Shown: piece after piece, positions 2,183 through 44,123 of the stretch | How positions within the stretch are numbered: the stretch's first letter is position 1 | Layout: every line of letters starts with the position of its first letter | Assembly: GCA_900770645.1 (NCBI GenBank) | Contig: CAAGKY010000102.1 | Coordinates: 1,053-65,052, forward strand | DNA length: 64,000 nt | Reading direction: 5' to 3' | From: Bacilli bacterium | Lineage (GTDB): Bacteria > Bacillota_I > Bacilli_A > ML615J-28 > CAG-313 | Notes under the pieces: model-generated | Databases searched by the model: none | Told to the model about the DNA's origin: nothing | The model's input: only the letters and a program-made list of their open reading frames with translations | Made by a program: the position numbers and the translations under genes

Positions 2183-2191
2183 AGTAAACTG

Positions 2192-4157: not shown

Positions 4158-4212
4158 TTTTGAATACTCGTTTAGTCTATAATTTACTGACTAGTACTGA
4201 GAACTAATTTAA

Positions 4213-4343: not shown

Positions 4344-4679
4344 ATGAATAGACTAGAAGAACTATTACTAAAAATAGTCAATAAAGAGCCTATTGGAAAA
4401 TGAGGTTGTGAAAATAGATTAGAGCAATACTTGTTTTGCATTATTGCAAAAGGTACTCCTGAAGCGACTGAAGAGTATGAAAAAATAAGATCATTAGATG
4501 GAAAAGTAGAAATAAACGGATTAGAAGCTTATTTAGATCTTATTTACAATATGACTCCAAATGGAACTAGTGAAATTATTGGCGAAATTATCGCTGCTAG
4601 ACTTGAACAGGTTGACCCAGAACCTACTATAGAACCAGTTGAAGTTATTAGTGGTCGATTAGAAGAAATAAAAGAATAG
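4344..4679 (+). CDS. hypothetical protein; first gene with an in-frame TGA (read as Trp)
   Basis: AAGGAGG RBS before ATG at 4344. TGA at 4401-4403 is in frame. The track shows only the 4431.. fragment. Confidence 0.5.
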
Positions 4680-13545: not shown

Positions 13546-16500
13546 ATGCTAAAAATGATTGTACAACATCGCAGAGGTACGACTGCTGAATGAAAATTAT
13601 CTACAGTAATTCCACTAGAAGGTGAACTTTTAATCGAAGAAACAGTTTCTGATGGAATTAAACTTAAAATTGGTGATGGTAAATCAGGATTCTTAGGCTT
13701 ACCTTATATCACAGATTTACTATCTGATAAAATTACTGCCGCTGAAAAAGAATTGAAAAATGTACAAAGCACTGTTACTGATAATGAAGTTATTAGAAAA
13801 TTAAGAAAAGATTTATCTGACCTTGACACCGAAATTAATCTCTTAAATAGAGAACTAGTAAAAGTTCAAAAAAACGTTGGTGACAAGACTATTAACCCAG
13901 AAACAAACGAAATAACTTATTCTGGACTTCATGCACAATTACAGACAATTAGAAACAGTGTTAATATGTTATCAAATAGAATTAGTGGTTTTACATCTCT
14001 TGAAGAAGGTAGTGTGACAGGAGATGCTGAATTACTAGATATTAGACATGGATTTAACGGAATCGACTATTCGTCTGCTGGAGACGCTGTTAGAGCTATT
14101 GGAGACGAATTACAAGCTTTTAAAGATGCTCTTCCTAGTTTTATTCCTGATAATGCTGTTGATGGATTATCTTATGAGAATAATAAGTTATATCTAACTT
14201 CTCAAGGTATTCAAGTAGGTGACGCAGTAACAATTACAGGAGGTGGCGGCGGTGGCAGCACATCTAGTACAATTATCACTTTAAAGAATAATGAGGGAAC
14301 AACTTCTAATATGTCTGTTTCAAAAGGAACTAAAGTAGAAATTAGTTTTAATTTTAGTTCTATTGAAGAAGGCGTTCCTACAGGAGACGGCGTATATAAT
14401 TTAGAAGTAAACAGTAACCCAGTTGAAACAAATGTTCAACTTTCACAAGGTAATAAGACAATCGATTTAACTAAATATTTAAAAGCTGGAATGAATAGAG
14501 TAAAACTTACTTGTTTCGATTATACTGGTTCTTATAAAAGCTTAGCTTATACGATTAATTTAATAGAGTTATCTATTGATTCATCTTTTGGCCCAAATAT
14601 AAATGATATTACTATATTTGAAGCTGACAATGCGGATGAAAATTTTGTTAGCGTAAATTATAATTATACTACTTATGGACAAGTTACAAAAATTGCTCAT
14701 TTCATATTAGATGATCAAGAAATTACTAATGCAGAAGGAAAACCTCTAATTCAATCACTAGGGGCTGGTGAAAAATCTTCTTCTATTAAGTTTAAGATTT
14801 ACGGACATGGTTGCCATAAATTTCAAGTTTATCTTACAGCCACAGTGAATAATAAAACTATTGAGAGTAATAAATTAACTTATAATATTTTATGTAATTT
14901 ACCAGATCCTGAAGCTACTAGACATCCAGCGATGATCGATTCAGTTTTCGAGATTACTAAAGCGACTCAAGGAGATTTGTTAGAAATACCATACAGAGTA
15001 TATGACCCAAATACTGGTCAAGTAACTGTAAATCTATTAGTTGGATCTGGAACAAAAGATAATTATGTAATAGATGAAAAATTATCTAAAGAAGAATTTG
15101 TCGGTAGAACAAAGCAAAAATGACCGATAAAAAATTATCCTATTGGAAATACTGTATTTATTATTAAATGTGCTTATCAAGTATATAACGAAGAAGGTAT
15201 ATTAACAACATATTATGCAGAAAAAATTCATGAAGTATTTGTAGAAGCACTAGATATTCCAGTAGAAGCTGAAACAGCTAATTTACAACTTTGATTAAGT
15301 GCAAACGGAAGATCTAATGCTGAGCTTAATCCTGCAGTATGAGAATATACTCAAACTGTTGAAACTGCTAATGGAATAGAAGAATTAGATACTATTAGAA
15401 CAACTTTTTCTAACTTTAACTGAGTTAATAACGGATGACTTTCTGACGTTAATGGTGATACTTGTTTAAGATTAAATGGTGCCGCTAAGGCCGTAATTGA
15501 TATTAAACCATTTGAAAAGAACTTTGTTAATACAGGTAAAACTTTTGAATTTGATTTTGTAATTAGAGACGTAAATAATCGTGATAGTACTGTAATTAAC
15601 TGTTTTAGTGGAAATAGAGGCTTTAAAGCTACTGCTGACACTTTTACATTCAGAAGTGAATCTGTTCAAATGTCTTGTAACTATAAAGACGTAACATATT
15701 TAACAAAATTAAATGATAAAACTCAAAAAGAAGAGACTATAGAGCAACTTGAACGAACAAGAATTTCTATTACTATTGCTCCATCTAGTTTAATCGCAGA
15801 TAATGCACCAGATTTGAACACTTATTTTATCTCGATGTATATTAATGGTATTTTATCTAATTGTCAAAAATATGGTGGAATAGATGAAGGATTTACTCAA
15901 AGTAATCCAGTAAAAATTTCTTTAGGTTCAGAAGACTGTGGATTAGATTTATATAGTATACGTATATATGATAGTGCACTTTCTCATAAAGGAATTGTTG
16001 ATAATTATATTGCGGATAGTGCTAATGGTCCAGATAAAATAGATTTATATAGAGAAAATAATATTTATTACGCTGATTCTGAGTTATCAGATCAAATTTC
16101 ATATGAAAGTTTAAAAGGAAAAATTCCAATTGTCACTTTTACTGGTAGAATGCCAACATATAAAGGTGATAAAAAGACAAATTCTGTGCTAATGAAGTTC
16201 GAACATCCAGAACATCCAGAGCTAAATTTTGAAGAAGTATTAAAAGAAATAGACGTACAAGGTACTTCTTCTCAATTCTATGTTCGTAAAAACTGAAAAA
16301 CAAAACATTACGACAAGCATGCTCATATGAAAGGTGAGATTCCAACTAAGGTTTTCTGTTTAAAAGTTGACTACGCTGAAGCCACTGGTACTCATAATAC
16401 TCAAGCTGCAAATTTTGTAGAAACATTATATAATCGTTCTGAAGCTCTTTTACCACCACAAGAAAAAGATTCTAGAGTTCGTTCTACGATTACTGGTTTT

Positions 16501-19500
16501 CCATGCGTTATTTTTGAAAAAGAGACTGCTTCTTCTCGACCAGTTTTCTCAGCAAAAGCAAACTTTAACTTTGACAAAGGTTCTGAAGAGGCATTTGGTT
16601 TTACAGAAGATTATGATGTAGAATCTTGAGAATTTTGTAATAACACTTCAGGTGCATGTAATTTCTTAGAAAAAATTAATACCGAAGCTTGAGCAGCTGT
16701 TTATAGATTATCAGGTGCTACTGAGAATACGTCTATTACGATTACGGCTAATTCTCCTGAAGAGGCTGAAATTATTGCTCGTGAATTATTAGCTACGAAG
16801 TCTTCTGAAGATGCTCAATGAGTTAATGCTAAATATATTGGTGTACATCCTTATTGATTAACTGACTTTGAAGCTAGATATGCTCAAAATACTATGAAGT
16901 ATAGCGATGGTTCTACATTTAAATTTGATAAAGATGAAATGTTCTCTATTGATAGATTTAAAGAGATGCATGATTGAGTTTGTGATACCGCAACAGTTAT
17001 GTACGCTAAGCCAGAAGCTAAGGATGGCTACTGATGAGTAGGTAATAAAAATACTGGATTTGAAATTCTTACAGACGATGATGGAAATATAATTCAACCA
17101 GAGATTATTGAAGACGAAGCAACAAAATCTAAGAATTGATATATTAATGGAGTAGATTCAAAAATATCTAGTCTTGATATCGTTCCAATAAATGTATTCC
17201 CTTTACCTAAACCTGTGACTATTGGAACAGTTGAATATAGAGAAGATAACGTAGATTATCGTAGAGCAAAGTTCGTCAAAGAATTTACAAACTATTTTGA
17301 TGAACACTATGCAGCGGTTTATTATGTATATACTTTTGTCGCATTAATGACCGACCAAAGAGCCAAAAATATGTTCTTAACTTATTGAGGTGAGACTGGT
17401 AAATGATATCCATATTTCTATGATAATGATACTTCTTTTGGTATCAATAATGAAGGTGCTCTTGTTTTCGATTATTATCATGAAGATACTGATACATTAG
17501 ATGGTGCACTAGTTTACAATGGTCAAAATAGTGCATTATGAACAAACTTTAGAGAAAATTTCGAAGACCTAGTTTCTTCAACATATCAAAACTTAAGAAA
17601 TAATGGTAAATTAGATTACGAAAAATTTGTAGAGCAATTTATTAATTGTGGAGCTAAGAAGTGGTCTGCATCTATTTATAATGCTGACGCAGAATATAAA
17701 TATGTGTCTATGGCACGACCTGACAATTTAGGAAACTTTGATGCTGCAAACTTATATCAAGTTAAAGGTTCTGCTGAACAACATTTTAAATACTTTGTTG
17801 CAAATAGATTAAAGTATTGTGATAGTAAGTGAAACTGTGGTGACTACCCGGACGACAAGATTTTCTTACGTATTTATACTCCATCTACAGGTGATAATGC
17901 TATTTTAAATGAGCCAAAACAGATTGACGGATATTGATGGATTGATGGTGTAAACACTGGATACTTAGTTAATACAGATAGCAGTGATCAAATCATAATT
18001 CCAGAAATAAGTGAAAATAATACTTGGATTCTAAATAAAGGTTTAGAAGATCAAGAAATTGATACAGAGATAGAGGTTAGATACGGAAAAGTTGAATTAG
18101 CAGTGGCACCAAATGCTAATATTAGTTTAAAAACATTTTCAGATATGTATGCAGGTGTTAAATACAAAGCAAATGGTACGTTATTAAGAAAGAGAGTTAA
18201 GAAAAATGTAATGTTAACTGGAAAAGACGCATTTATTCCTCCAAAATCAGCTAACGGTTTATCTGAAGTATTTAATGATACTGAAACTGCGATTTATGGT
18301 GCGAGTGAAATTTCTTCTCTTGGAGACCTATCTGGACTTTATTGTGGTGTTATTGATGTTTCAAAAGCTACGAAGTTAACTGAACTAAAAATTGGTAACA
18401 GTACTACTGGTTATTTTAATGATAACTTTAGAGATATTCAATTAGGTAATAATAGATTATTGAAAAAAATTGATTTAACAAATTGTCGAGGTTTAGGAAT
18501 CGCTGGAAAAAGCCCTCAAAAATCTTTAAATGTATCAGGTTGTCCAAACATCGAAGAAATTTTGGTTAAGGGTACAAGTTTAGAATCAATTAACTTGCCA
18601 GCTTCTGGATATATTACAAAACTTGAATTACCAAATACTTTGACAGGTCTAAATATTAGAAATCAAATGTACTTAACAAATAGTGGTATTTTATTGGACG
18701 ATTATTCTAAACTTAAAAAATTACGTATTGAAAACTGTAAAAATATAGATACTTTAGCTCTTCTTAGAAATTGTATAGATAGTTCGAATAACTTTACAGT
18801 TGAACGAATCAAATTAACTGGAATAGATTGAACATTTGATGATCCTGAATTCTTATTATCACTTATGAGTATTAAAGGTATGGACGCAAATGGTTTAGAT
18901 ACTGATCATGTATATCTTGGCGGACATGTTCACATAAAAGAACTTACTGGAGCACAATATACTCGAATATTTGATTACTATAATACTTATCACACTAATG
19001 AATCACTTTTAAAAATTACTTTTGATCGTATGACATCTTATGTATCGTTCTATACTAACGTAAAAGATGGAAATGGAAACTATATTCCATTTACATTCTC
19101 AGATGGAACACCTTGAATCCAAGAAGTTACAAATACACTAAACGATAAAGGAGAAATTGTTCGTAATACGACTGATCCAACAAAAGTTCCTTATTTATAT
19201 GATGGAAAAGAGGAAAAATTACAAACTCCAACTCAAGAAAGCACTATTGAGTTTTCTTATGCATTTAATGGTTGAACACGTACGCCTAATGCTCCTGCTC
19301 AAGTAGATGCATTATTAGACGTTACAGGTGATCGATCTGTTTATAACGCATATGTAAAAACTATTAATAAGTATCCAGTTCAATTTTATACTTATGGTTG
19401 AGATGGTCCAGAGTTATTAAATACGGTTATGACTAATTATGGTGAAATTGCAGAGTATTCTGGTGATACAGCGTTACTGATTAAAGGTAATACTAGTGTA

Positions 19501-20871
19501 CCAGAACGATATGAATTTGTAGGATGATCGCCTGAACCATTAGTTAAGCCTACTACTTTTGATGAAGTTATTAAGACTTACGCTCAGTTTAACTTAGTCG
19601 ATCGAGATGAAGACGGAGATATTTCTGATGAGTGACATATTCCATTACTTGGTGATATTAATTACTCTATAGATGACACTTCAAAGAAGATGAATATTAC
19701 TGCTTACTATAATACTAGTGAACCATTAGTTTATATACCAGAATCTTATTTTATTGGAGACGAGGAATATTCTGTTTACGAGGTTGGTGGTTTTAACGCT
19801 ACAAATGTAGAACATGTTAAATTAGCTGAAGGAATAGAATCTATTTATGGACACCCAATAAATGGAGCATTTGCTGGTGCACAAAATTTAGTTGAAGTAG
19901 ATTTACCAGAAAGTTTGACTACGATTAAAGACAAAGCTTTTTCACAAACTCCTAGATTGACAGAATTATACATTCCAAAAAATGTACAAAGGATCGAAAG
20001 ATCAATTTTAGGTGAAGGTGGACATGTGAAAAATATTACCGTAGATAAAGATAATAAGATCTACGAAGCTATAGATGGATGTTTATTGGGACCTTATTCT
20101 TTATATTCTGCAAATGGAAAAGAGAATGAAAAGATAGTTCTTGCATGTAACACTAATGATGCTTTACCAGACTCTGTACAAGATAAAAATATTGTATGTA
20201 TAGGTACAGATGCATGTAGACAAAATCATTGTACCGAAATAACTATACCCAATACAGTTAAAATATTAGAAAACTTTGCTTTCTTTAGTTGTAAGAATCT
20301 TAAAAAAGTTAACTTATCTAGTAATGTTGAAGAATTTGGATCTGGAGCATTTGGATATTGTGAAAACTTAGAGTCTATCACTTTACCAGAGACTTTAGTT
20401 CAATTATCAAACCATGCGCTAGTTGGATCAAACCTTGAAGAAATTATTGTGCCAGCAAATGTAAAAAATATCTCAATCGAAGCCTTTAGTAAATGTAAAA
20501 ATCTTAAAAAGATTACTTTTATGGGTAAACCTGATAAGATTTCTTGGTCTATACTCGCAGATTCTGGTCATGAGGATGGCTTAGAGATCTATGTAGCTTG
20601 AAATAAAGAAGATAATCGCACGATTGGTGCTGGAGATACTGCCAAACTAGGTGACCCATATACTGCTATACCTTGTGCTTGAGGTGCAGGAGCGCCTATG
20701 CCACAAACACTTGATACAGAATCTGATTATGCCTATAACCGAGAAATTAAGCGTACTCGTAATGTAAAAATTATTTATAAAAATGGTGAAGAGCAATTAT
20801 TATTAGCAGGCGAAAAAGCTTGACCTGATTGATCAGCTATTTCAACATTTATAGATCGAGGAGACAATTAG
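13546..20871 (+). CDS. giant multidomain virion protein (about 2441 aa): fibre N-terminal motif, CotH kinase-like domain, LRR and BspA-type LRR
   Basis: I checked frame continuity across every junction; there is no in-frame TAA or TAG from 13546 to the TAG at 20869-20871. More than 20 in-frame TGAs. CotH-like DQRAKNMFLTYWGETGKW(tga)YPYFYDNDTSFG. LRR region 18100-18830. BspA-like LRR IPxxVxxIxxxAFxxCxxLxxI at 19690-20600. Confidence 0.7.
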
Positions 20872-20872: not shown

Positions 20873-21565
20873 ATGTATAAAATAATTTATAATAACAAAG
20901 TTATTGAAGTAATTGAAAATCCAAAATTTATTCGATTTTTAGCTAAAGGTCATGTTGGTATTACTAGTAAGTCAGATGCGCAAGGAGTAATCAGTGAAAA
21001 TAGCTCTACTGTATATCGTTTTGATTATAGTGCTCAGACAACTAGAAAAAATATTCTTGATATTAAACTTGAAAGAATTTCAATAGAAGAATTTAGAAGA
21101 TTAGAACATCTTCTAAATTCTGGCAAACAGCCAGACGCAGACTTATCCGCACTATCTGTTGCAAAAAGAAATAAAATTTCAGCATTATCAGAAGAATGCA
21201 ATAGACAAATTATCTCAGGAATTAGCTTAGTCTTATCTGATAATCAGATACATCAATTTAAATTGACAATAGAAGACCAATTAAACATATTATTGTTAGA
21301 GAACCAATTAAACTCTGGTATAACTACGTTTGTTTATCATAGTACCGGTGAGCCTTGTAAAGTATTTAATAAAGAAGACATGTATAAAATTATTTCTTCT
21401 ACTAGATCTCATATTCAATATCACACAACATATTTTAATTTACTAAAGCAATATGTTAATACATTAGTTACTTCAGAAGAAGTTCAAAATATTTACTATG
21501 GAATAGACGTAGAAAAAATTTCTACTGATAAGACCATGAAGACATTTTTGCGAACTTTAAAATAG
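20873..21565 (+). CDS. hypothetical protein, possibly a fibre assembly or chaperone protein
   Basis: ATG overlaps the giant ORF's stop (TAGTATG). No TGA. Confidence 0.45.
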   Translation: MYKIIYNNKVIEVIENPKFIRFLAKGHVGITSKSDAQGVISENSSTVYRFDYSAQTTRKNILDIKLERISIEEFRRLEHLLNSGKQPDADLSALSVAKRNKISALSEECNRQIISGISLVLSDNQIHQFKLTIEDQLNILLLENQLNSGITTFVYHSTGEPCKVFNKEDMYKIISSTRSHIQYHTTYFNLLKQYVNTLVTSEEVQNIYYGIDVEKISTDKTMKTFLRTLK

Positions 21566-22018: not shown

Positions 22019-22771
22019 ATGGCAGAACAACGCATTGATAGGATTCGAATTCAGATGAAGCGTGGATCTAGCTTAGATTGGCACAAAGCCAGTGAAGCTA
22101 CGACTCCATTTATTCCAAAAGAAGGAGAATCCATTTTTTATACTGACATGAACATGCTAAAAATTGGTAATGGGACAAGTACTCCAGACCAATTACCTTT
22201 TTTAGATGTTGAACATCCAGATGAAACTTTTAAAACTTTTGCAGTGTCAAATTATGACTGCGATAAATGTACAGAAGCTGGTGTGTATTTAATTTCTGGT
22301 GGAACTGATACGCCAGAAAGCTATGTTGGTGGAAATTTACTAGTAATTCCAAATACTGACTACATCACACAAATGTTATTTGTTCCAGGAAATGCTGCAA
22401 ACATTCGTGGTACAATGTTCTTTAGATACTACATTAATAAAATTTGGACAACTTGGGAACAAATCACAACATCTAAACATGTTCATCAAATTACTTTTAC
22501 TCCAACTGGAACAATTAGCTCTCCAGATATTATAGTGTCTGTTGAAACAGACGATGTAATAGGTAATTTTGTACCTGGATCTGGTAGTGCTAGTTTAGGA
22601 GTAGAAATTGATCACAAAAGATTATCTTTTGCGTTACAACATTCTCATGTAGCTTCAACTACTAGTACTAAAACAGTTCTTACTGCGGCTACTGCGAGAC
22701 TTAAGGATGCACCAGTATTTACTGGGACATCTACAACTATTGGCACAAATAATGCTATAGAAGAAAAATAA
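22019..22771 (+). CDS. fibre-like structural protein (shared N-terminal motif)
   Basis: N-terminus RIDRIRIQMKRGSSLDWHKASEATTPFIPKEGESIFY...KIGNGTSTPDQLPFL. Confidence 0.6.
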   Translation: MAEQRIDRIRIQMKRGSSLDWHKASEATTPFIPKEGESIFYTDMNMLKIGNGTSTPDQLPFLDVEHPDETFKTFAVSNYDCDKCTEAGVYLISGGTDTPESYVGGNLLVIPNTDYITQMLFVPGNAANIRGTMFFRYYINKIWTTWEQITTSKHVHQITFTPTGTISSPDIIVSVETDDVIGNFVPGSGSASLGVEIDHKRLSFALQHSHVASTTSTKTVLTAATARLKDAPVFTGTSTTIGTNNAIEEK

Positions 22772-22805: not shown

Positions 22806-24995
22806 ATGGCAACCGTTAAAACTGTTATTGATTCGTTATTTTACACCAATCCTGCTAATGGTGATGTAACAGAAGCGAACTTTACCTTACCTTTTGGTAC
22901 ATGTGAAACTGCTGCTGCTACTGCAGCTAAAGCTGTAACATGTGCGAACTTTGTAGCTTTAGAAACTGGAGCTTCAGTAGTAGTTAAATTTACTTATGCA
23001 AATACTGCTTCTTCAGCTACATTAAATGTTAATAGTACAGGTGCTAAAACTATTAAAACTTCAGACGGTCAAGCTTTATCTGGATCAAACTTAAGTCCAT
23101 GAAAAGCTGGCGATATCGTAAATTTTGTTTACGATGGTACTAATTGGCGTAGTTATGCTGCAATCACTAGAAAAGATTTAGTAGATGCAATTGCACAAAA
23201 TGACGCATTAACTTACAAAGGAACTATTCCTGTTAGTTCTACTGTAGATATTTTCCCAGAAACTTTCCCATTAGCTGTTAATCGTGGTTGAACTTATAAA
23301 GTTGCAGCTGCAGGATACTTAGGTTCAGTTAAAGTTGAAGCTGGTGATATGATCATTTTCAATACAGACTGTGATGGAACAAATACTAAAGCAAATTCAA
23401 CTACATACTTTGATGTAATTCAAGGTAATATGGATATGAAAGCTTTAGAGGATAAATTCTCAGAAGCTGATCATACTCACTCTTATTCTCATACTCATAA
23501 AGTATCTCATACTCCAGCTGGTACAAATGAGAATACTTCTATTACTCCAAAAGGTAGTGTTGTAAGTACTTTTAGTGGTAATACTGATACATTAACTGGA
23601 GCAGTTACAACTAAGTCTGCTGGTGGACATACACATACATTTACTGGTACTGCTGCAGAACATGACCATACTTTTGCTGGATCTGCTGCAACAATCTCTG
23701 TTAAAGGCACACCTACTGGATCTGTTTCTAGTACTTCAGTGACTCCAGATGGAAATATCACTGAAGTTACAGTTGACTCAACTCATACAGCAAACTATAC
23801 TCCAAAAGGAAGTATAACTGCAAGTTTCTCTGGAACTGAAGCAAGCCATAATCACTCATTTACTGGAACAAAAGCAACTTTATCAGTAGATTATACTCCT
23901 GAAGGTAACAATGCTGAAGTTACTTTAACTCCAGATGGTGTTAACTCAGCTGTATCACACTCTCATACATTAGATTTATCTGGTAGTTTTACAGGAATTG
24001 CTGCAACGATTACAAGTTCTGAAAAATTTGTTAAGTCTGGTTCTATTGGAAATGCTGGTGGTCATACTCCTACTGGTACTATCTCAAGTACTACAAATAT
24101 TCCTAGTGGAAAAACTGCAAACTACACTCCTGCTGGATATGTTCCTCAAACTAGTATTACTGTAGGATCTAATGATATAGTTTCAGCAGTAACAAGCGTA
24201 ACACACGGAGCTGGTTCACACGTACACAATCCTGCAACTTTAACAATGAGTGCTACAAGTAAAAAATTATCTATTACTTTTAGTGGAGGTTCTGGTTCAC
24301 ACTCTGATCCAACTGTATCTACAACTACAGATAACGTAATAGGTACAGCTACTACTTTCAACCTTCCAAAAACAAATCTTACAGGTACTCCAGCATACTT
24401 CACTTTTGCAGGTACAGCTGTAGCTGATCATACTCATACATTTAGTCCATCAACCGAAAATGTTTCTGCTAGTTATACTCCTACTGGTTCTGTATCTGTG
24501 TCTGGTACTGCATCGTCAGATTCTCATACACATACATTTACAGGAACTACTGCTGCGCATACTCATGCATTTACTGGTACTGAAGCTACTTTAAGTACTG
24601 AATATACTCCAGCTGGTTCTATTGGAAACAAAGCTATTACTCCTGCAGGTACAGTTAGTGCATCATTCTCTGGTACTGCAACTCATTTAGACTTTGTTGG
24701 TATTGCCGCATCTCATGATCATACATTTACTGGTTCAGAATTTACTTCTTCTGGTTCTTATACTCCTGCTGGTACAATTGCTAAGACTTCTATTACTCCT
24801 GCCGGAACTCTTGACACTCAAGGTAGTCATACTCATGATGCTACATTAGCTATGGATGGATATACTCCTTCTGGAACAGTTTCAAGTACATTTACAGGAA
24901 CAGCTGAAGAACATACTCATACATTTACTGGTACTGCTGCAACAATTACTACAACTGATCAATCTGCTACTACAACAAGTGCAGCAAATAAATAG
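22806..24995 (+). CDS. tail fibre with tandem His-x-His repeats (T4 gp37/gp12-like phage fibre repeat)
   Basis: One frame across TGAs at 23100 and 23289. About 14 repeats of GxHTHTFTGTAA/SHxHxFTGT. N-terminus GTCETAAATAAKAVTCANFVALETGA is shared with the 25161 gene. Confidence 0.7.
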
Positions 24996-25160
24996 TAAGA
25001 ACTTAAAATTTAAAAAAATAAATATTTAATTAAAAAACTAGCCGTTACATTAATAGTGTTAAGCTATGTGTGACGGCTAGTTATCTTTAAATTTTCTAAT
25101 TTAAAATTGTATAATATTAAAAATAAACATTTTGACAATGAGAAAGGAGATTTCTTTTAA

Positions 25161-27137
25161 ATGGCAAATAAAGTAATTGATTCCATGACATATGGAAGCG
25201 ATACGTATACGATTTCGACGCCTTATGGAACCTGCTCGACTGCTGCAGCAACAGCAGCTAAAACTGTAACATGTGCTAACTTCGTAGCATTAGAGACTGG
25301 AGCAAAAGTTACAGTACTTTTTACTTATGCTAACTCAGTTGCAAATCCTACTTTAAACGTAAATAGTACAGGTGCGAAATATATTTTATATAGAAATACT
25401 AAATTAGATACTTCAGCAGAATATTGAAAAGCAAATGATACACTTACTTTTGTATATGATTCTACTTGAAGTTCTAATACTGGTGCTTGAAGATTAGAAG
25501 GTCATTTAGATACTGATACAAATACTAACACAACTTATTCAGTAACTACTGGTGACAATAATGGTCAAATTAAAGTTGCACCTAGCGGTGGAACTGCTTA
25601 TAATGTGAATGTTAAAGGGTTAGGATCATCTGCTTTTGTACCTACTTATAAGGCAGCTGAATGCACATCTTACTCTTCAGATGATGGTAACTGTACACCT
25701 GCAGCTGTAAATAAAGCGATTACTCAAGGAATTTTTCCAGCTAACTCTACTGCTTATGGTACAATTAAAGTATCTTCTGTTAATTCTTCTGCAGTTACAG
25801 TAAATAATGAATCTTCAACTGCTGGAAGATATTATCCAATAGAATTAAATAGTGATGGAAAAGCTATTGTAAATGTTCCTTGGACAGATACTGACAATGA
25901 TACAACATACTCAGCTGGAACTGGACTAACTAAAACTTCAACTACTTTTAAAGCAAACTTAAGAAGTGAGACAAAATTAACTAATGATTCTGCTGCAGCT
26001 ACTGAAGTTGCTAATAGAGTTTATCCAGTAGCGGTAGATAAATCAGGGTACTTATCAGTAAACGTTCCTTGGGTAGATACTAATACTCACGACGGTAATG
26101 ATAATCAAAAAGTTAGTGCTGGAACTACAACTTTTGGTATAAATGATACTGTTAAGTTTGTTGCTGGTAGCAATGTTACGATTACGCCTGATGCAACAAA
26201 TAAAACAATTACAATTAGTTCAACTGATACTAATACGGACACTAACACATCTCATGATCACACTGCGGGCACAGGATTAATTATTAGTGGTAGTGGTGGA
26301 ACATCTGGTACGACAACATATTCAGCAAATCTTAACAGTACAACATCTTTAGGAACTATTGGAACCACATCTAAGCTTTATGCTGTTGGTGTAGATGCTA
26401 ATGGTAAATTATGTGTAAACGTTCCTTGGACAGATACTAATACTGATACTAATACTCATTACACAACAGGTTTATATGTTGGAGCTAGTAATGCAAAATC
26501 TAATGCAGCTACTTCTAATGGTGGAACATACTTAAAACTGTATGACGACAGTACAAAACGTGCTGAATTTAAAATTACTGGGTCTGGTGCGACTACAGTA
26601 ACTTCTGATTCAAGTGGTAATATTACTATTAGCTCAACAGATACAAACACAGATACTGGAGCTACTAGTGTAGAAGTTACTGGGTCAGGTAATGCAGTAA
26701 CTGCTGCTTCTTATGATGCGTCTTCTAGAAAAATAACTCTAACAAAAGGCACTACTTTTTTAACTTCACATCAAACAATGTATTATAGACCTATTCGAGT
26801 GAATGGTACTCAAATTTTAGCTAATACTTCAAGTACAGCTTTAAACTTAAAAGCTGGAACAAACGTGTCTATTAGTAATTCTAGTGGAACAGTGACAATT
26901 AGTGCAACTGATACTAATACATGGCGTGGTATCCAAGATAACTTGACTAGTACATCTACTACTGAGTCATTAAGTGCAAATCAAGGTAAAGTATTAAAAG
27001 GATTAATCGACGGAAAATCAGACTCTGGTCATACTCACACTTCAGTTAATGGTTATACTATTACTGTTTTATCTCAATCTTCTTGAAATAGTCTTTCTTC
27101 TAAATCGTCTTCGACAATATATTTTATAACTGCATAG
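25161..27137 (+). CDS. paralogous fibre protein with VNVPWTDTNT repeats
   Basis: Same N-terminus (GTCSTAAATAAKTVTCANFVALETGA). Repeats Y(P/A)V(A/G)VD..G.L.VNVPW(T/V)DT. One frame through five TGAs to TAG at 27135. Confidence 0.65.
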
Positions 27138-27147: not shown

Positions 27148-28389
27148 ATGGCAGTAAAAAAAATATATAAAGGATCGAGTGTAATAAATAACCTATCTGT
27201 TGGAAGCACAGAAGTTAAAAAAGTAGTTGTTATAAATAGTAGTGGTACTTCTAATACTGTTTATGAAAAAGATTTTGATACATACATTACTGTCGTAACT
27301 CCTGCTGGGACAGTTATAAACAAACAAATGGTGACAGCTGGCACAAGTCTTACAACGTCTACTCTTCTTGGTAAAGTACTATCTTATAAATCTTCTGAAT
27401 ATACATCTAATAATCTATACTATTATGATGTACCATGCGATATAACTGTTACACTCTACGATGAAAATAATCAAGTAATTAGGAATATTTTTACTACCGC
27501 TGACGATTTCTATGATGATTTAGCTTCTTATAATTGTGCTACTTCTGGAACATATTATCATATAAAAGCTGAAGTAGAATCTACTTCAAAAGTCGCAGTT
27601 ATGCTTAATATTGATGTTTATTATTATATGTCTTTTGCGCTTTCTGGACTAGTTTTTACTAAAAGTTATCATAAAGGCTCGACATATTCTCAAATTATTA
27701 ATGATTCAGGAAGACCTTCGAGTGAAGTTGTCACTACTGGTGGCTGAAAATATTCTTATTATTATCATCATTTAAGATATGACGACGATACGTCATCTAC
27801 TATTAGCTCTTCAGATCGTATTTTGTCTAGTAGAGCTGTTGAGTATTATTATGCGTATGATCTAGAACAAGTTGACACTAGCGCAGATGGCGCACCGACT
27901 TATTCTGGAGTATTCTTAAAGGCAAGTGATGGAACGTGGCAAACAGTTTTCTCTTGTAGCGGAAACTCTTACGGCGCTATTTATGGAACAGTTAATGCGT
28001 CTGGATCAGACGGTGCTTATAGTGGATATACTTATTCTCTTTTGCTGAAATTCTGAATTGTAACTCCGCCTGGGACAAGTGAAGGTAAAGGATGAAAAGT
28101 TACAGTATATAGTAATAGACAATATATAACTAGTGATGTAACTGCTTTTGATACTTCAAGCGGCTTTATTTTTCCTGGAGTAAACTCAAGAGGTACAGGA
28201 TTTAATAATGTTCGTTTAGGAACATACCAACAAGGTTCTCACAATCTTGGAACAGGGTGATTAAAATTAAAAGCTGCTGGAACAGATATTGTTGGAAGTC
28301 TTGGTGTTGAAAATCAAGAACTTACTAATAACTGTACTATTTATTGAGATGCTAACAACAGTAATTCATCTTCTGGAGGAGGAGACTAA
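27148..28389 (+). CDS. structural protein, unknown function
   Basis: One frame through TGAs at 27745, 28054 and beyond. Stop TAA overlaps the next start (TAATG). Confidence 0.55.
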
Positions 28390-29945
28390 TGAAAAAAAAT
28401 TATTTATACGATCTTGTGAAAGATGCAAAAAGCAATATATTAAATCATTTTGAAGTATTAAAAAATCAGTATCCAAATATTTTAAATTTTAATTCTTTTA
28501 ATGAGTTGCTAGAGAGAGTAAAATCTAAAGAACTATTAGATGCAATTAAAAAATTAATTTCTAATTTTTCTTTTGACGAAAATACAAAAAATATTTTGTT
28601 AAATCGTCTTGATGATACTGAAGATAGAGATCCTATTGTTATTGGGATCACTGGAACTGTGGGAAAAACTTCAATTGCTTATTTACTTAGCGAATATTTT
28701 AAAGCGTATGGAAAGAAGGTAACTCTTCTTTCTAGCGCTGAAATAGATAATCCAATACTTTCTATTTCAAAAAATTTTCCAATTGACGTTCCAATTACAT
28801 CTTTAGATTTTTTAAAATACTTCATAAAGGAAAGTTTAAATTATAATAGTGATATAATTATTATTGAAGTATCTGAAGAAGCTCTTAAAGACGGCAGAGT
28901 TGATGGTATACCTTTTGATATTAAGATTTTATCACATTTTTGGTCTACATGGTTATTTCCTGACACTTCTGAAGAGAATTATTTTCAAAACAAGAGTAAG
29001 TTTTTTGAAAAAGAAGATGACGTAATGTATTTTATTAATAATAATGCGAAAATGGTTCGTAGATTTATTGATAAAGTTAAAAATTATAAACTATTTGGTG
29101 CAAGAGTAAATAGTCAAGATATTAAGAATGAAGATACTAATTATATCGAAGAGCATTTATTTCAAAGTATAAAAAATCAAGCATATGTTATAAAAGGAGA
29201 AAAAGGTTCTTATACTTTAAAGAGTAAAAATATGTTTGGTACTCATCATATGGTTAACTTAACTTGTATTGTTGGAGTACTAGAATATTTAAATATGTTA
29301 GATACAGATATTTTAAGCCAAGTTCTTTGCTCAACAAAAGTTCCAGGTAGAGAAGTAATTACTGCAGGTGATAGAACATTTATTGTAACACTTAATTATT
29401 TAAATGAAATTAATTTTATTCGTGAATATTTAGCTAAAGAATATTTTGAAGAAAATGCATTAGGTGAGTCTTTGTTTAACGAGAAATTTAATTGTGAGAT
29501 AAATAATATAGTATTACTTGACGGTATAGAAGGATTTTCTCCAAATTGAAAAACTAGAAGTGGAAAACCTTTGACTGAAGAATTATTTAGATCTATTAAA
29601 GAGAGAACAAAGAGTGATTATAAGAGATGGAAGTCATTAGGTTTTGATGGATTATCTAAAATTTATTTAACTCCAAATAATCCAGGTCATGCAGACCCAG
29701 AAGAACTTGTTGAATATCTTCGTGAATTATACGAACCATCGCAAAAACCGATTACTACTATTTCTGATAGACGAAAAGCTCTTCAACAAGTTGTATTTGA
29801 CTCTGAACCTGGTGATATTATTTTTATCTCTGGTAGAGGTAATTTCCAATATTATGAGTTAAAAGATGAGACTTTATTCTTTACAGATAGTGCGATAATT
29901 ACAGATACAATAAAGAATTTACCTTGAAGTAAAGATTTAGCATAA
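28389..29945 (+). CDS. Mur-ligase-family protein (MurE/FolC/CapB-like nucleotide-binding domain)
   Basis: P-loop VIGITGTVGKTSIAYLLSEYF. Single frame through TGAs at 29547 and 29925 to TAA at 29943. Confidence 0.55.
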
Positions 29946-32737: not shown

Positions 32738-33769
32738 ATGTTTATTGGAGTTTTATTAGGAATTATTTTTGTTGCTGCTGCAATTGGTTTAGGTTTTGCA
32801 GCATATTCAGCTTTTGGTAATGAGCGAAGTGTAGGTGGAGCATTTTCTGTTGTTGGTTGTATTATTTTTGTAATTGCTTTTTTAGCTGTTCCATTTAGTA
32901 TTAGAACAGTAGATACTGGTAATATTGCAGTAGTTAAGCAATTAGGTGAAGCAAAATATACTAGATCTGCCGGAACTCATTTTGATTTTTGGATGACTAA
33001 GACTTATACTACATATGATGCGAAAGTTCAAAATGTAGATATTACTACACAAGCTTATTCAAGTGATGCTCAAACAATGGAGATTGCAATGACGCTTCAA
33101 TATCAAATTATTTCAGATAAAGTAGTTGATATTGCAAAAGAATATGGAACATTAGATATTTTACAAAATCGTATTCAAAGTATTGCGATAGAGAAAACAA
33201 AATCAGTATTATCAGCTTATAAAGCTATGGATATTATCGAAGATCGTGCTAAGATGTCACCGTTAGTAGAAGAAGCTATTAAAGAAGCTATTGGTGAAAA
33301 ATATTTTGTTACAGTACAAACTGTTGTGTTAACAGATATTTCATTCTCAGAAGCTTTTGAAAAAGCAGTTGAAGAAAAAATGGTAGCAGAACAAGCTAAA
33401 CTACAAAAAGATTATGAAAACCAAGCTGCTGAGGCTGCAGCAGAAACAGCTAAAAAAGTAGCTGAAATGCAAGCAGATGCAGAAGCTTATGCAAAAGAAA
33501 AAGCAGCTGAAGCAGAAGCAAAAGCTATTATTGCTAAAGCAGAAGCTGAAGCTGAAGCTTTAAATATTCAAACATTAGAAGTAGCTAAAATGCTAGGATT
33601 TACTGAAGTTGTAGATAATAAAGAACAAATTAAAGAAAATTTAACTTTAGAAGAAGCTAAATTAATTAAGGCATATATTGAATATATTAAATATATGGAA
33701 GCTTGGAATGGAGAATTACCAGATACTGTTGTTGGCAGTGATGCAAGTATAATTCTTCCAGCAAAATAA
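32738..33769 (+). CDS. SPFH/Band-7 (prohibitin/HflKC-like) membrane protein
   Basis: N-terminal TM segments, SPFH core and an Ala/Glu/Lys coiled-coil tail. Confidence 0.7.
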   Translation: MFIGVLLGIIFVAAAIGLGFAAYSAFGNERSVGGAFSVVGCIIFVIAFLAVPFSIRTVDTGNIAVVKQLGEAKYTRSAGTHFDFWMTKTYTTYDAKVQNVDITTQAYSSDAQTMEIAMTLQYQIISDKVVDIAKEYGTLDILQNRIQSIAIEKTKSVLSAYKAMDIIEDRAKMSPLVEEAIKEAIGEKYFVTVQTVVLTDISFSEAFEKAVEEKMVAEQAKLQKDYENQAAEAAAETAKKVAEMQADAEAYAKEKAAEAEAKAIIAKAEAEAEALNIQTLEVAKMLGFTEVVDNKEQIKENLTLEEAKLIKAYIEYIKYMEAWNGELPDTVVGSDASIILPAK

Positions 33770-33840: not shown

Positions 33841-34000
33841 GTAGCGGATGCATGAGTTACTTCGTATAATGGTTAATACACTTTTCTTTTAAAAAAGCTA
33901 AGCTGGTTCGACTCCAGCAGTAAAATGCTCGTGCAGTTATTCACATCTTTTCTAACTTAATATTATTATTGACCTAGCGGTAACAGCAGTTACTTCGGAA
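33841..34000 (+). ncRNA. candidate structured ncRNA with a tRNA-like T-arm, possible Y-RNA-like partner of the Ro60-like gene
   Basis: Promoter-driven. Contains GCTGGTTCGACTCCAGC (canonical T-stem/loop) but no acceptor or anticodon partner. Direct repeat AGTTACTTCG appears twice. No ORF. Confidence 0.3.
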
Positions 34001-34135: not shown

Positions 34136-35794
34136 ATGTCAAAAATGTTAGACTCAGTTAAAGAAATTCGTTCAGATGTTAAATCAAAACAAGTTACAAA
34201 TTTTATGGGCGGAAATTCTTATGAATTAAACGCTATTGATACTTTAAAGATGATTACAGCTTCATCTATTTTTGGAGAACCTTCATATTACCGTAATGGT
34301 GAATTTGATGATGCAAAAATTACTGATGCATATTATGATGTTAATTCTTTATTTAAAGAATTTAGTGTATTAGATGATTCTAAATTCTCTGGTAAAAAAA
34401 CTTCTGAAATTATGGAACAAGTTATTGATGAAGCATTAACAGAAGATTTTGGGGCTGTTTTAGATTGGGCAGTTGAGCTACGTAAAAACTATTTAATGAG
34501 ATTAAACCCTCAAGTTATTATGGTACGTGCAGCTATGCATCCAAATAGAGTTAAATTTAATGAAGAAAATCCAGGTAAATTTAAAGAAACAGAAAAATTA
34601 GTTATGTCTCGTGCTGATGAACCTGCTTCTCAATTAACTTATTATTTATATAAAAATAAGAATAAAAATAATTTACCAAATATTTTAAAACGTTCTTGGG
34701 CTGAAAAATTAGGTAGTTTAAATGCATATCAAGTTTCAAAATATAAAAATACAGGTTTAGGAATGATCGACGTAGTTCGTATTTCACATGCAAAATCTAA
34801 AGTTTTAGATGAACTTATGAGAACAGGAACTGTTGTTGTAGCTGAAGAAGATAAAACTTGGGAAAATCTTAAATCAGCTGGAAAAACATGGAAAGAAATT
34901 CTTGAAACTATTAAATTAGGCCATATGGCTCTTTTAAGAAATCTTCGTAATATTTTTACAGAAATTGATGATAGAGCTATTTGTATTAAAGTTCTTGAAG
35001 ATTTAAAAGCTGGTGTTTTATCTGGTAAACAATTTCCATTTAGATACTATTTAGCATATAAAGCAGTTGAAGAGTCAAGTATGAACTTTAAACCACTAGT
35101 TTTAGATGCATTAGAAGAATGTATTGATATTTCATTAGATAACATGCCAAAACTTTCTGGTAAAACTATGACATTATCTGATAACTCTGGTTCTGCTTGG
35201 GGAACAATTCCAACAGAATATGGATCAGTTAAAGTTGCAGAGATTGATAACTTATCTGCTGTTATTACAGCAATGCTTTCTGATGAAGGTTATGTTGGTG
35301 TATTTGGAGATAAATTAGAAATTATTCCAATTAAAAAACGTGATGGTGTTTTATCTCAGATGAAACTTGTTACTGAAAAAGGTAGTAGAGTAGGTAGAGG
35401 AACAGAAAATGGTATTTGGTTATTCTGGGACAAAGCTATTAGAGAAAAAGAACATTGGGATAATGTATTTATTTATTCAGATATGCAAGCAGGTCATGGT
35501 GGATTATACGGTATTGATGCACACTGGTATAACGAATATAGATGTCGTGGTAGTTATATTGATGTTATGAAGCTAGTTTCTAAATATCGTTCAACAGTAT
35601 CTGGCATAGTAAATGTATTCTCAGTTCAAACTGCTGGATATACAAATGTAGTAATTCCAGAATATGCATATAGATCTAATGTAATGTATGGCTGGACAGG
35701 TAAAGAAGTTGTATTCGCTGACACAATGATTAATTTTTGGAATGAAAAAGATTTAGAGAGATTAATCAAAATTAGAAAAAATAATCAAAATTAA
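34136..35794 (+). CDS. Ro60/TROVE-like protein with C-terminal vWA domain (Rsr-like)
   Basis: 552 aa. Large alpha N-terminal region followed by a vWA MIDAS motif LSDNSGSAWG (DxSxS) at about residue 345. Flanked on both sides by ORF-free structured RNA and a tRNA island. No TGA. Confidence 0.45.
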   Translation: MSKMLDSVKEIRSDVKSKQVTNFMGGNSYELNAIDTLKMITASSIFGEPSYYRNGEFDDAKITDAYYDVNSLFKEFSVLDDSKFSGKKTSEIMEQVIDEALTEDFGAVLDWAVELRKNYLMRLNPQVIMVRAAMHPNRVKFNEENPGKFKETEKLVMSRADEPASQLTYYLYKNKNKNNLPNILKRSWAEKLGSLNAYQVSKYKNTGLGMIDVVRISHAKSKVLDELMRTGTVVVAEEDKTWENLKSAGKTWKEILETIKLGHMALLRNLRNIFTEIDDRAICIKVLEDLKAGVLSGKQFPFRYYLAYKAVEESSMNFKPLVLDALEECIDISLDNMPKLSGKTMTLSDNSGSAWGTIPTEYGSVKVAEIDNLSAVITAMLSDEGYVGVFGDKLEIIPIKKRDGVLSQMKLVTEKGSRVGRGTENGIWLFWDKAIREKEHWDNVFIYSDMQAGHGGLYGIDAHWYNEYRCRGSYIDVMKLVSKYRSTVSGIVNVFSVQTAGYTNVVIPEYAYRSNVMYGWTGKEVVFADTMINFWNEKDLERLIKIRKNNQN

Positions 35795-36083: not shown

Positions 36084-36161
36084 GGCGGGGTAGAGCAGCT
36101 TGGTTAGCTCGGGGTCCTCATAAGTCCCAGGTCGTGTGTTCAAATCACACCCCCGCAACCA
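36084..36161 (+). tRNA. tRNA-Met(CAU), initiator-like
   Basis: GGCGGGGTAGAGCAGCTTGGTTAGCTC...CTCATAA...GTGTGTTCAAATCACACCCCCGCAACCA is near-identical to E. coli tRNA-fMet. Position 1/72 mismatch (G1-A72). Encoded CCA. Confidence 0.85.
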
Positions 36162-36164
36162 TTT

Positions 36165-36238
36165 GGGCACTCTTATTGGTATCCTTTAAGAATTAGCGCT
36201 ACTTAAATGTCGAGGTTCGATTCCTCGGGTGTCCACCA
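36165..36238 (+). tRNA. degenerate tRNA-like element (no canonical anticodon arm)
   Basis: Acceptor GGGCACT/GGTGTCC with two G-U pairs. Perfect T-arm CGAGG-TTCGATT-CCTCG. Encoded CCA. I could not fold a D-arm or anticodon stem. Confidence 0.35.
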
Positions 36239-36241
36239 TAT

Positions 36242-36317
36242 CTGAGCTGATAGCTTAACACGGTAAAGCGCCTGCCCTGACCAGGTGGGAGTTGTGGTTC
36301 GATTCCACTGGCTTAGA
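36242..36317 (+). tRNA. tRNA-like, putative Gln(CUG) with non-canonical features
   Basis: Acceptor CTGAGCT/GGCTTAG (two G-U pairs). T-loop TTCGATT. Anticodon stem GCCTG/CAGGT. Loop CCCTGAC has C at position 33. Confidence 0.4.
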
Positions 36318-36481
36318 CTGTAACTTTAAAATCCTAGTTATTTTTAAGGTCAGGAAGTAGAGTAGCCGTAATTCCTGTAGCTATATTGGTAGTGCTTTAT
36401 AACTAAAAGATAAAAGTATATTTTTAATGGGAGTCACTAACCATATTAAAAATCTATGAATAGTCAAACGGTGAATTCTTT

Positions 36482-36556
36482 GGTGCTATAGTATATCGGT
36501 TAATATCACTGGTTGTCGCCCAGTAGCGGGGGGTTCGACTCCCCCTAGCACCGCCA
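36482..36556 (+). tRNA. tRNA-Asp(GUC)
   Basis: Acceptor GGTGCTA/TAGCACC. D-stem GTAT/ATAT. Anticodon arm ACTGG-TTGTCGC-CCAGT. T-arm GGGGG-TTCGACT-CCCCC. Encoded GCCA. Confidence 0.8.
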
Positions 36557-43133: not shown

Positions 43134-44123
43134 ATGAATAAAAAAAGAATGGTAAGCGGGATCAAGCCTACGGGAAAAATTTCAATCGGAAATTATTTAG
43201 GCGCAATTAAACAATTTATTAACTATCAAGATGAATATGATTTATATGTATTTATTGCTGATTTACATGCTCTAACTTTACCAATTGATCCGGAAGAATT
43301 AAAACAAAATATTGAAGATTTAGTTGCTATTTATTTAGCTTGTGGATTAGACCCAGAAAAATGTAAAATTTTTAAACAATCTCAAATAATTGGTCATACT
43401 GATTTAAGTTGGATTTTAACATGTAATTCTAATGTAGGTGATTTTACTAAAATGCCTCAATATAAAAATTATATTGAAAAAAATAGTACTAATGGTGTTC
43501 CAGCTGGAATGTTAATGTATCCAGCATTAATGGCAGCAGATATTTTATTATATGATGCTGATTACGTTCCTGTTGGAATTGATCAAATGCCTCATGTTGA
43601 TTTATGTAGAGATATGGCAGAAAAGTTTAATAAACGCTTTCCAGATACTTTTAAATTGCCTTCTGGTGTTTTAAATAGAACAACTAGTAAAATCATGAGT
43701 TTATCAAATCCAACGCGAAAAATGAGTAAATCTGAGTCTGATAAAGGAACAATTTATTTATTAGATGACATTGAAGTTTCTAAGAAAAAAATTATGAAAG
43801 CTTTAACAGATTCTGAAAATAAATTTTATTATGATCCTTTCTTAAAACCAGGCCTATCTAACTTAATTAATATTTATTCAGCATTATCTGGACAAGCTGT
43901 TGAAGAAGTTGTTGAACAATACAGAGATTCTGAAAATTATGGCGTTTTTAAAAGAGCTTTATGTGAACTGTTAGAAAAAGAATTACTTCCAATTCAAGAA
44001 AGAGTGAAAGAAATTAAAGAAAGTAAATCTTATGTTCAAGTATTACAAGATGGTAATTGGGCAGCTCACGATCTAGCTTTTTCAAAGATGAGAGAAGTTT
44101 ATAAAAAATTAGGTTTAAAGTAA
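43134..44123 (+). CDS. trpS: tryptophanyl-tRNA synthetase
   Basis: Near full-length collinear similarity to bacterial TrpRS. SGIKPTGKISIGNYLGA (HIGH-region equivalent), ADLHALT, MYPALMAADILLY, KMSKS. 329 aa. No TGA; all Trp codons are TGG. Confidence 0.95.
   Translation: MNKKRMVSGIKPTGKISIGNYLGAIKQFINYQDEYDLYVFIADLHALTLPIDPEELKQNIEDLVAIYLACGLDPEKCKIFKQSQIIGHTDLSWILTCNSNVGDFTKMPQYKNYIEKNSTNGVPAGMLMYPALMAADILLYDADYVPVGIDQMPHVDLCRDMAEKFNKRFPDTFKLPSGVLNRTTSKIMSLSNPTRKMSKSESDKGTIYLLDDIEVSKKKIMKALTDSENKFYYDPFLKPGLSNLINIYSALSGQAVEEVVEQYRDSENYGVFKRALCELLEKELLPIQERVKEIKESKSYVQVLQDGNWAAHDLAFSKMREVYKKLGLK

Follow-up and report, generated by a model that had tools for sequence, protein, structure and literature searches.

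Receptor-binding cassettes of phages have a conserved N-terminal anchor and a distal part that is swapped, and in the tip of the T4 fibre protein gp37 the chain reaches the head domain and then returns. Here, we describe two adjacent genes, A and B, which probably encode a pair of such fibres and which lie at positions 22806-27137 of a 64,000-nucleotide stretch of DNA assigned to a Bacilli bacterium (assembly GCA_900770645.1, contig CAAGKY010000102.1, positions 1,053 to 65,052 of the forward strand). This whole stretch is called the window in the following, and all positions refer to it.

The closest described systems come from three sides. Three symmetry-related HxH motifs (two histidines separated by one residue) form an octahedral six-histidine Fe(II) site (PMC6116203). 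Such Fe sites occur in T4 gp37, the R1 and R2 pyocin fibres, P2 gpV and phi92 gp138, while T4 gp12 has Zn, and the ions are thought to serve as registration points in trimer folding and to tune stiffness (PMC6116203; PMC11705849). The structures concerned are PDB 2XGF for the T4 gp37 tip and 6CL5/6CL6 for the R1/R2 pyocin fibres. In the tail fibre of phage Pa193, bead I contacts the baseplate protein gp46 (PMC11456595). Finally, a pattern of TGA usage like the one reported below has been described for TGA-recoded gut phages, some of which encode a tryptophanyl-tRNA synthetase (TrpRS), for example the 'Jade' clade (preprint 10.1101/2021.08.26.457843).

Our preferred explanation, to which we assign as a whole a probability of about 0.62, is that A and B are adjacent tail-fibre (receptor-binding) genes that belong to the late, TGA-recoded fibre module of a phage with low GC content from the gut or rumen. 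The fibre identity is drawn from the Pfam family PF22337 in B, the Mtd_N domain of the upstream protein U, the matches of neighbouring genes to PHROG and Collagen families, and the likeness of the shared N-terminal domain to a bead of Pa193 gp47.

Two adjacent fibre genes and TGA recoding

The features of the two genes are listed below, with lengths in amino acids (aa) under genetic code 4; AlphaFold2 models are graded by predicted local distance difference test (pLDDT).

22806..24995, + strand: gene A, predicted tail-fibre protein of 729 aa, with a Shine-Dalgarno sequence AAAGGAG upstream
22806..23165, + strand: A aa 1-120, leader (MATVKTVIDSLFY...) plus a beta 'bead' of ~88 aa (GTC.TAAATAAK...TLNVNSTGAK...FVYDGTNW), from AlphaFold2, profile and Foldseek
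23100..23102, + strand: in-frame TGA, codon 99 of A
23166..23450, + strand: A aa 121-215, a helix and a small beta domain (ALTYKG...GWTYKV...GDMIIFN...FDVIQGN), AlphaFold2 pLDDT ~70-90
23289..23291, + strand: in-frame TGA, codon 162 of A
23451..24992, + strand: A aa 216-729 (~510 aa), degenerate 11-residue repeats with 13 HxH and ~15 TPxG, from motif, autocorrelation and alignment
25036..25082, + strand: hairpin with U-rich tract, likely intrinsic terminator (-26.9 kcal/mol, z = -7.4)
25086..25115, + strand: promoter-like site TTTAAA-18-TATAAT before B, a consensus match of a kind no commoner here than in shuffles
25161..27137, + strand: gene B, predicted mosaic tail-fibre protein of 658 aa, from code 4 translation and BLASTP
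25161..25499, + strand: B aa 1-113, leader (MANKVIDSMTY) and bead module, a paralogue of the one in A, from BLASTP, hidden Markov model (HMM) and DNA repeat
25425, 25467, 25488 and 27084, + strand: in-frame TGAs of B (codons 89, 103, 110 and 642), from frame translation
25831..25898, + strand: NVPW unit 1 (YYPIELNSDGKAIVNVPWTDTDN), aa 238, motif and DNA repeat family D7
26020..26087, + strand: NVPW unit 2 (VYPVAVDKSGYLSVNVPWVDTNT), aa 301, motif and DNA repeat
26377..26444, + strand: NVPW unit 3 (LYAVGVDANGKLCVNVPWTDTNT), aa 420, motif and DNA repeat
26931..27026, + strand: B aa 591-622, match to Pfam PF22337 (Phage_fiber_rpt), E = 2.1e-11, 43.7 bits with the gathering threshold at 27

The initial annotation presented A and B as two adjacent fibre paralogues. 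Their coordinates hold only if TGA is read as tryptophan, and the recoding had been overlooked. Under the bacterial code, gene A is broken into open reading frames (ORFs) 22806-23102 and 23349-24995 (98 and 548 aa) and gene B into ORFs 25161-25427 and 25605-27086 (88 and 493 aa). The intactness of both depends on reading two TGAs in A and four in B as Trp; TGA is the only in-frame interruption, and each gene ends with TAG. Protein P0001 of a public collection, likewise 729 aa long, is 100% identical to A.

TGA serves as a sense codon here, most likely for Trp, because it falls on columns where W is conserved and because a domain continues beyond it. At the column of codon 99 of A, 31 of the 51 homologous module copies have Trp, and TGA also stands at the conserved W of Mtd_N-like N-termini in neighbouring fibre genes (...TTAE(TGA)KL, ...TTN(TGA)EIS). 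In the Mur ligase gene at 28389-29945, the C-terminal Pfam domain Mur_ligase_C lies downstream of an in-frame TGA. In addition, codon 162 of A lies within a conserved motif that reads GWTYKV in the homologues P0007 and P0008 and in the orthologues of A. TGA usage is patchy across the window: the fibre genes at 4930-29945 are rich in this codon, with 30 TGA versus 4 TGG in the ORF at 13546-20871 (2441 aa), whereas most other ORFs have no TGA and use TGG only. As a result of this recoding, standard gene calling breaks up A, B, the Mur ligase gene and the giant fibre gene. A class-I tRNA synthetase encoded at 43134-44123 is a plausible code-change gene by comparison with the TrpRS of the TGA-recoded 'Jade' phages. 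Since both A and B contain TGA codons, they would be producible only once the decoding of TGA as Trp has set in, hence late in infection.

Histidine-pair repeats of gene A

Gene A had been described as carrying about 14 tandem HTHTFTGTAA / SHxHxFTGT repeats. The abundance is borne out, with 13 HxH motifs where 2000 shuffled sequences average 1.35 and never exceed 8, but the array is not strictly tandem, as the motifs are interspersed with ~15 (Y/I)TPxG units. Of the 32 histidines in A, 26 belong to HxH motifs, and 7 of the 13 motifs have the canonical form HxHxFxG (by eye). Beneath this lies an 11-residue period, for which the autocorrelation (lag 11) reached z = 6.4 in A, 8.4 in the homologue P0005 and 8.2 in P0007, and a start-to-start spacing of 33 nucleotides (nt) recurs among the DNA repeats. 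The repeats are laid out as six HxH (aa 223-387), a single HVH at 472 and a further six HxH (aa 542-705). The centre (aa ~361-540) contains a non-repeat element that is conserved, and no other part varies more among the orthologues, in whose alignment the last 40 aa equal the N-terminus in conservation.

The evidence for a function of these motifs comes from a four-way alignment of A with three orthologues from other metagenomes (L002, L003 and L001, with 90%, 61% and 57% identity, respectively). All 26 paired histidines are invariant wherever an orthologue keeps the unit, although the identity of the repeat region drops to 54%, and the middle residue is free to vary (T, K, S, D, N or E). The sole exception is L003, which has lost two paired histidines through a clean 11-residue deletion of one HxH unit. 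By comparison, four of the six unpaired histidines vary among the orthologues. Across 61 diverse family members, H229 and H231 are conserved at 90% or more. The invariance of the pairs, set against the falling identity around them and the variable unpaired histidines, is strong evidence that the paired histidines are functional.

In the homologues P0007, P0008, P0019 and P0034, an A-type middle domain likewise precedes HxH repeats. Their N-termini differ, for example Mtd_N-like in P0007 and two beads plus a long insert in P0019. Because the same pairing is found behind different N-termini, the middle domain together with the HxH repeats is the evolutionary unit. The repeat family itself is small and undescribed, as an exhaustive phmmer search with A aa 215-729 among 1.84 billion cluster representatives gave only 109 proteins at E <= 1e-3, 33 of them at E <= 1e-10. 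In 61 relatives, no Pfam family covers the repeats, with occasional PTR, Mtd_N and PF22337 matches elsewhere in those proteins, and the search of A against PHROGs gave nothing beyond one match at E = 0.13.

The comparison with T4 fibres that had been suggested for A stands only in part: the constraint on the histidines fits the known HxH metal sites, but sequence searches with A detected no homology to gp37 and no match among PDB chains or Pfam families. The Pfam family Phage_fiber_2 (PF03406), which had been put forward as a check, matches neither A nor B at E <= 1. We rejected it as an HxH family, since the positive controls P0048, P0010 and P0082 match it with other segments, of the type 'GVVRLS..DS...AATP.AVK.A.D.A', which lack HxH. 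PF03335 (Phage_fiber, 14 residues) matches T4 gp37 at aa 924-937, covering the HSH at 929. In total, T4 gp37 has seven HxH in its C-terminal 150 aa, at 883, 915 and 929, then 966, 980, 989 and 998.

Based on the invariant paired histidines and the published HxH structures, we propose that A could form a trimeric metal shaft. The alternation H-x-H-x-F and the 11-residue period fit beta strands with the histidines on one face, and the repeat region would build an intertwined trimeric beta shaft or needle. In this arrangement, each HxH contributed by three chains would create an octahedral six-histidine Fe(II) or Zn(II) site on the three-fold axis, up to 13 in number, and these sites would pin the trimer together and set its register, in the manner of T4 gp37, R-pyocin fibres and P2 gpV. 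The binding of metal, the topology of the trimer and the docking partner are all inferred here. Weak evidence suggests that at the variable centre the chain may turn back, comparable to the gp37 tip, so that the distal tip would be encoded in the middle of the gene; this idea derives from the 6 + 1 + 6 layout, the variable centre, the conserved C-terminal end and the presence of one 11-aa deletion in each arm of L003. A single pass is also possible. Pairing HxH motifs across the arms by summed coordinates was dropped as uninformative, because one HxH per chain suffices for an axial site. The full proposal, in which A is the founder of an undescribed small fibre family whose trimer threads up to 13 Fe or Zn ions and maybe forms a fold-back needle, is put forward tentatively and is in our view rather doubtful.

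Shared N-terminus and exchangeable slot

The N-termini of A and B had been considered identical over 60 aa. They are indeed shared, but a BLASTP alignment over roughly the first 115 aa shows ~57% identity (by eye), the longest identical run being 13 aa (VTCANFVALETGA), and at the DNA level a core of 165 nt is 75% identical. Being homologous rather than identical, the two N-termini are old paralogues and not the product of recent gene conversion. The bead of A is all-beta in the AlphaFold2 monomer model (pLDDT 85-96). A Foldseek search of the model of aa 1-215 against the PDB found as its best match 9b45 chain 2 (probability 1.00, 31% identity), the root-mean-square deviation being 2.9 Å over 93 columns for the bead; this match was obtained from the prediction of aa 1-215 alone, and the full-length model gave no meaningful match. 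A search with the module profile (hmmsearch) hit residues 269-342 of the same chain, the Pa193 tail fibre gp47 (9b45_2, E = 3.6e-6). In BFVD, 51 further matches to the bead fold were found, and those that carry a name are for the most part tail fibre, minor tail or hyaluronidase proteins.

Ahead of the bead, both proteins carry a leader of ~20 aa with the motif MATVKTVIDSL in A and MANKVIDSM in B, which we described by the pattern M-x(1-5)-[IVL][IVL][NDS][STAL][ILMV]. Half of the proteins with an N-terminal first module (36 of 72) have this motif, compared to 1 of 89 with internal modules only and 2 of 175 without any module; only one of 142 internal module copies has it upstream. As the leader is specific to N-terminal copies, we infer that leader and first bead make up the docking end and that A and B sit on equivalent docking sites. 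In the proposed mechanism, leader and bead would trimerise and dock both fibres at equivalent sites on the baseplate or on another fibre.

Behind its bead, B is built from different elements. The repeated units noted initially are confirmed, with three copies of Y(P/A)(V/I)..D..G.(L/I).VNVPW(T/V)DT at aa 238, 301 and 420, and a second unit, ITISSTDTNT, also occurs three times. Downstream of PF22337 follow a GHTHT motif and the C-terminal end, where PF24243 (Phage_tail_C, aa 633-657) scored 15 bits, below the cut-off of 23.7 (E = 0.016). Matches of B to HLA chains in a PDB sequence search were judged to be chance, and nothing real was found there with B. At least 2145 homologues of B were found at E <= 1e-3 among 8000 candidates scored, and they match different segments with 55-91% identity, for example aa 347-499 in P0131 (75%), aa 339-518 in P0134 (68%) and aa 194-497 in P0124 (58%). 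Because each homologue shares just part of the protein, B is a mosaic of widely exchanged fibre modules. The last ~120 aa are common to very few homologues, and as the most private part of B, the C-terminal end would be the likeliest specificity determinant.

Three related contigs, those carrying the orthologues of A, allowed us to compare the slot occupied by B. Their common gene order is a giant fibre containing leucine-rich repeats, a 230-aa protein, a protein of ~85 aa, U (~250 aa, Mtd_N), A and a gene with leader and bead. The modules of A and of the B-slot gene stay N-terminal in all four genomes compared. The distal part of the B-slot gene, however, takes three different courses: the L002 gene shows 88% identity to B along the 231 aa that the contig covers, the L001 gene diverges directly after the bead (SKIYLVGA... 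and GHTHNYAASSHGNH motifs), and in L003 (4178-7228) a protein of 1016 aa has beads at aa 19-111 and 396-482 and two NVPW units. No Pfam families were found in the L001 and L003 B-slot proteins. The L003 protein also carries HTHxxYAASDHTH motifs, a further style of HxH (HTHSSYAASDHTHDYSNTYAAKSHTH); HxH is thus widespread among these fibres and is set in more than one type of sequence.

The region between A and B suggests separate transcription. The hairpin lies just 3' of the A stop codon, and none of 200 shuffles folds as well. It is kept in L002, and in L001 (~12240-12290) the letters of the stem differ (GGCTGCTA...TAGCAGCC), which is a compensatory change, the A protein of L001 being 57% identical. 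In L003 the hairpin is absent and the gap is merely 46 nt. Between the promoter-like site and B lies a further Shine-Dalgarno sequence AAAGGAG. Altogether, since the relatives keep A (57-90%) and differ in three ways in the distal part of the B slot, A acts in this small sample as the constant fibre, and the B slot as one that is exchangeable and transcribed independently. The early suggestion of a receptor-binding cassette pair is thereby supported, with A retained and the distal part of the downstream gene swapped, and B would act as an exchangeable host-range cassette with its own transcription unit.

Genomic context, competing explanations and known systems

Around A and B, the following genes are relevant for the interpretation:

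13546-20871, + strand: giant protein of 2441 aa with an Mtd_N-like N-terminus; its 2410-aa homologue in L001 has an LRR_5 match in the C-terminal part
20873-21565, + strand: 230-aa protein, conserved in every relative at a place upstream of U and A, with a match to PHROG 1348 'tail fiber protein' (E = 1.4e-10) and a weak one to DUF4376
22019..22771, + strand: protein U, 250 aa, fibre-like, Pfam Mtd_N at the N-terminus (E = 1.8e-6)
27148-28389, + strand: Tyr/Ser/Thr-rich ORF of 413 aa directly after B, with 5 in-frame TGA and no Pfam or PHROG match
28389-29945, + strand: Mur-ligase-like protein that directly follows the fibre block, Mur_ligase_M spanning aa 87-296 and Mur_ligase_C aa 418-484, read through a TGA at codon 387
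43134-44123, + strand: class-I Trp/Tyr tRNA synthetase, PF00579 (E = 1e-71), KMSKS motif, no TGA

In line with the initial description, A and B are fibre genes with a common N-terminal device that lie inside a fibre gene cluster, and their neighbours have matches to Collagen and to PHROG families of tail fibre and tail assembly. An Mtd_N-like N-terminus of the form 'RRG...W...GE...KIGDG' opens at least five more fibre-like genes (at 4930, 7477, 7969, 11627 and 22019), so that the phage encodes an unusually rich set of fibres, with N-terminal anchors of two kinds. The gene at 4930-7455 has collagen repeats at aa 439-475. U lies directly upstream of A in L001-L003, and its C-terminal part contains two HxH (aa 154 and 208) as well as TPTG and FTGT motifs; a relationship of U to the centre of A as a paralogue is unproven, the similarity being at motif level (E >= 0.2). 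The ORF at 27148-28389 could represent a single recoded gene or a few short ones, with an adhesin or fibre accessory protein as a possible product. Farther away, an SPFH/Band-7 protein is encoded at 32738-33769, and a TROVE (Ro60-like) protein at 34136-35794 (+, E = 5.6e-9) lies amid tRNA genes (33854-33928 and 36084-36556). The only sizeable minus-strand block, at 56855-62032, coincides with a sign change of the GC skew and encodes a topoisomerase IV/gyrase A-like subunit, a B-like one as judged from its sequence, and a 388-aa protein.

Relatives in public databases are found at the level of modules. Among GenBank phages, megablast with 10 kb found no similar DNA, and tblastn with A and B gave short module matches alone, in human-faecal phages (NatCom_9287, crAss-like phage cr85_1 and one unannotated contig). 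In GTDB genomes, the module occurs mainly in metagenome-assembled genomes (MAGs) of gut and rumen Clostridia and in some Muribaculaceae. IMG/VR contained no orthologue of A, and the scans of IMG/VR and GTDB returned module-level relatives alone. Our guess for the host is Bacillota.

Several observations weigh against the explanation proposed above. A is not significantly similar in sequence to T4 gp37 (E = 0.23 by BLASTP and 1 by phmmer), matches no PDB chain with either the single sequence or a 58-sequence profile, and finds nothing in Pfam at E <= 1, PF03335 and PF03406 included. The AlphaFold2 monomer has pLDDT < 50 over most of the repeat region, with no confident fold, and no trimeric beta-helix or needle is predicted from this monomer model; such values are what would be expected of an obligately intertwined trimer and are uninformative. 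None of the 12 tRNAs in the window, which is only part of the genome, has the anticodon UCA of a suppressor tRNA. The comparison of the exchangeable slot comprises three contigs, in two of which the B-slot gene is truncated by the contig end. Moreover, when an HMM was built from both modules, 169 of 249 collected proteins proved to contain the ~88-aa domain, in 1-6 copies each and at any position, so that the bead is a general fibre module, a shaft bead rather than a dedicated anchor.

The last point leads to one of the alternatives, namely that the common N-terminus has no role in attachment: A and B would be tandem duplicates sharing a generic bead, and U or the 2441-aa protein would attach. 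The constant position of U next to A and the six neighbouring fibre-like genes with a different, Mtd_N-like N-terminus would suit this idea. Against it, the leader is specific to N-terminal copies (36/72 compared to 1/142 internal ones), these modules are N-terminal in 4/4 genomes, and in Pa193 it is the N-terminal bead that contacts the baseplate. We therefore prefer a docking role and consider the duplicates-only scenario improbable, though it deserves to be taken seriously. A different objection concerns the histidines, which might be structural without metal, either as inward-facing ladders held by hydrogen bonding or stacking or as a pH sensor, A then being a Thr/Ser/Gly-rich shaft. The compositional bias of the repeat region (T 19%, S 12%) and the fact that A has no homology to any solved metal-binding fibre, its repeat family lacking a Pfam or PDB reference, speak for such a shaft. 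However, strict i/i+2 histidine pairs with a free middle residue and the loss of unpaired histidines are the signature of a six-histidine octahedral site (PMC6116203; PMC11705849), and a metal-free ladder accordingly seems unlikely to us, if still a genuine competitor of metal binding.

Yet another possibility is that A and/or B are head or neck fibres or decoration proteins. PF11133, a phage head fibre domain, is present in several module-bearing homologues, which counts against a tail location; in addition, baseplate, tube and sheath genes do not adjoin the fibre cluster, and the upstream ORFs at 298-4679 look non-structural from reading their translations. The closest solved relative of the module is, however, a tail fibre (Pa193 gp47), B contains the tail fibre repeat PF22337, its neighbours match PHROG 'tail' families, and swapping as in the B slot is typical of host-range genes. 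We regard a head or neck location as very improbable and retain the reading of A and B as tail fibres.

Dual or exchangeable receptor-binding proteins, HxH metal sites and code-4 late genes are all of a well-known kind, and the pair, taken as a dual fibre cassette, is biologically ordinary. The family of HxH/TPxG 11-residue repeats and the leader-bead anchor, by contrast, are not described in Pfam or PDB. Leader-bead N-termini and NVPWTDT modules are found in hundreds to thousands of unannotated fibres of uncultured gut phages, and because TGA recoding truncates A and B in standard gene calling, host-range genes of TGA-recoded phages are systematically mis-annotated. With the recoded gut phages of Borges et al., the window has in common the concentration of TGA in structural genes, other genes using TGG only, as well as a Trp/Tyr tRNA synthetase, low GC content and module relatives mostly in Clostridia MAGs.

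Like dual or exchangeable receptor-binding protein cassettes, A and B combine a common N-terminus with a divergent distal part that is swapped among close relatives, in B within a mosaic protein; unlike in typical cassettes, the anchor here is a domain that is also used as an internal shaft bead. The same domain links both proteins to the 'beads-on-a-string' fibre gp47 of Pa193, a PB1-like Pseudomonas phage, to one of whose beads the module is homologous. The differences are that the match falls on bead III (residues 269-342), whereas bead I is the docking one, that A and B have a single bead with a distinct leader peptide, that the remainder of gp47 is unrelated, and that host and phage type differ. 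Furthermore, the gp47 bead is trimeric with three four-stranded sheets, while the A bead is known as a monomer model only.

With regard to T4 gp37, the likeness lies in several HxH in one fibre protein, in the local resemblance of HSHTFSFGT (gp37) to HTHTFTGT (A), and in two HxH-bearing arms flanking a central element. A differs in that its sequence has no significant similarity to gp37 (E = 0.23) and in that it has neither a PF03335 match nor the collar domain PF07484; its 13 HxH are spread over ~510 aa with an 11-residue period and interleaved with TPxG. If the metal reading is true, A would add a sequence-unrelated family to the HxH metal-stapled fibres, and this from an anaerobic gut or rumen phage, a setting in which 'Ferrojan horse' iron-loading ideas have not been examined. 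Its putative 13 sites would be the highest number among the compared examples (T4 gp37, 7; Alteromonas phage R22Y, 6), and up to 13 ions would be about twice the seven of the T4 gp37 tip.

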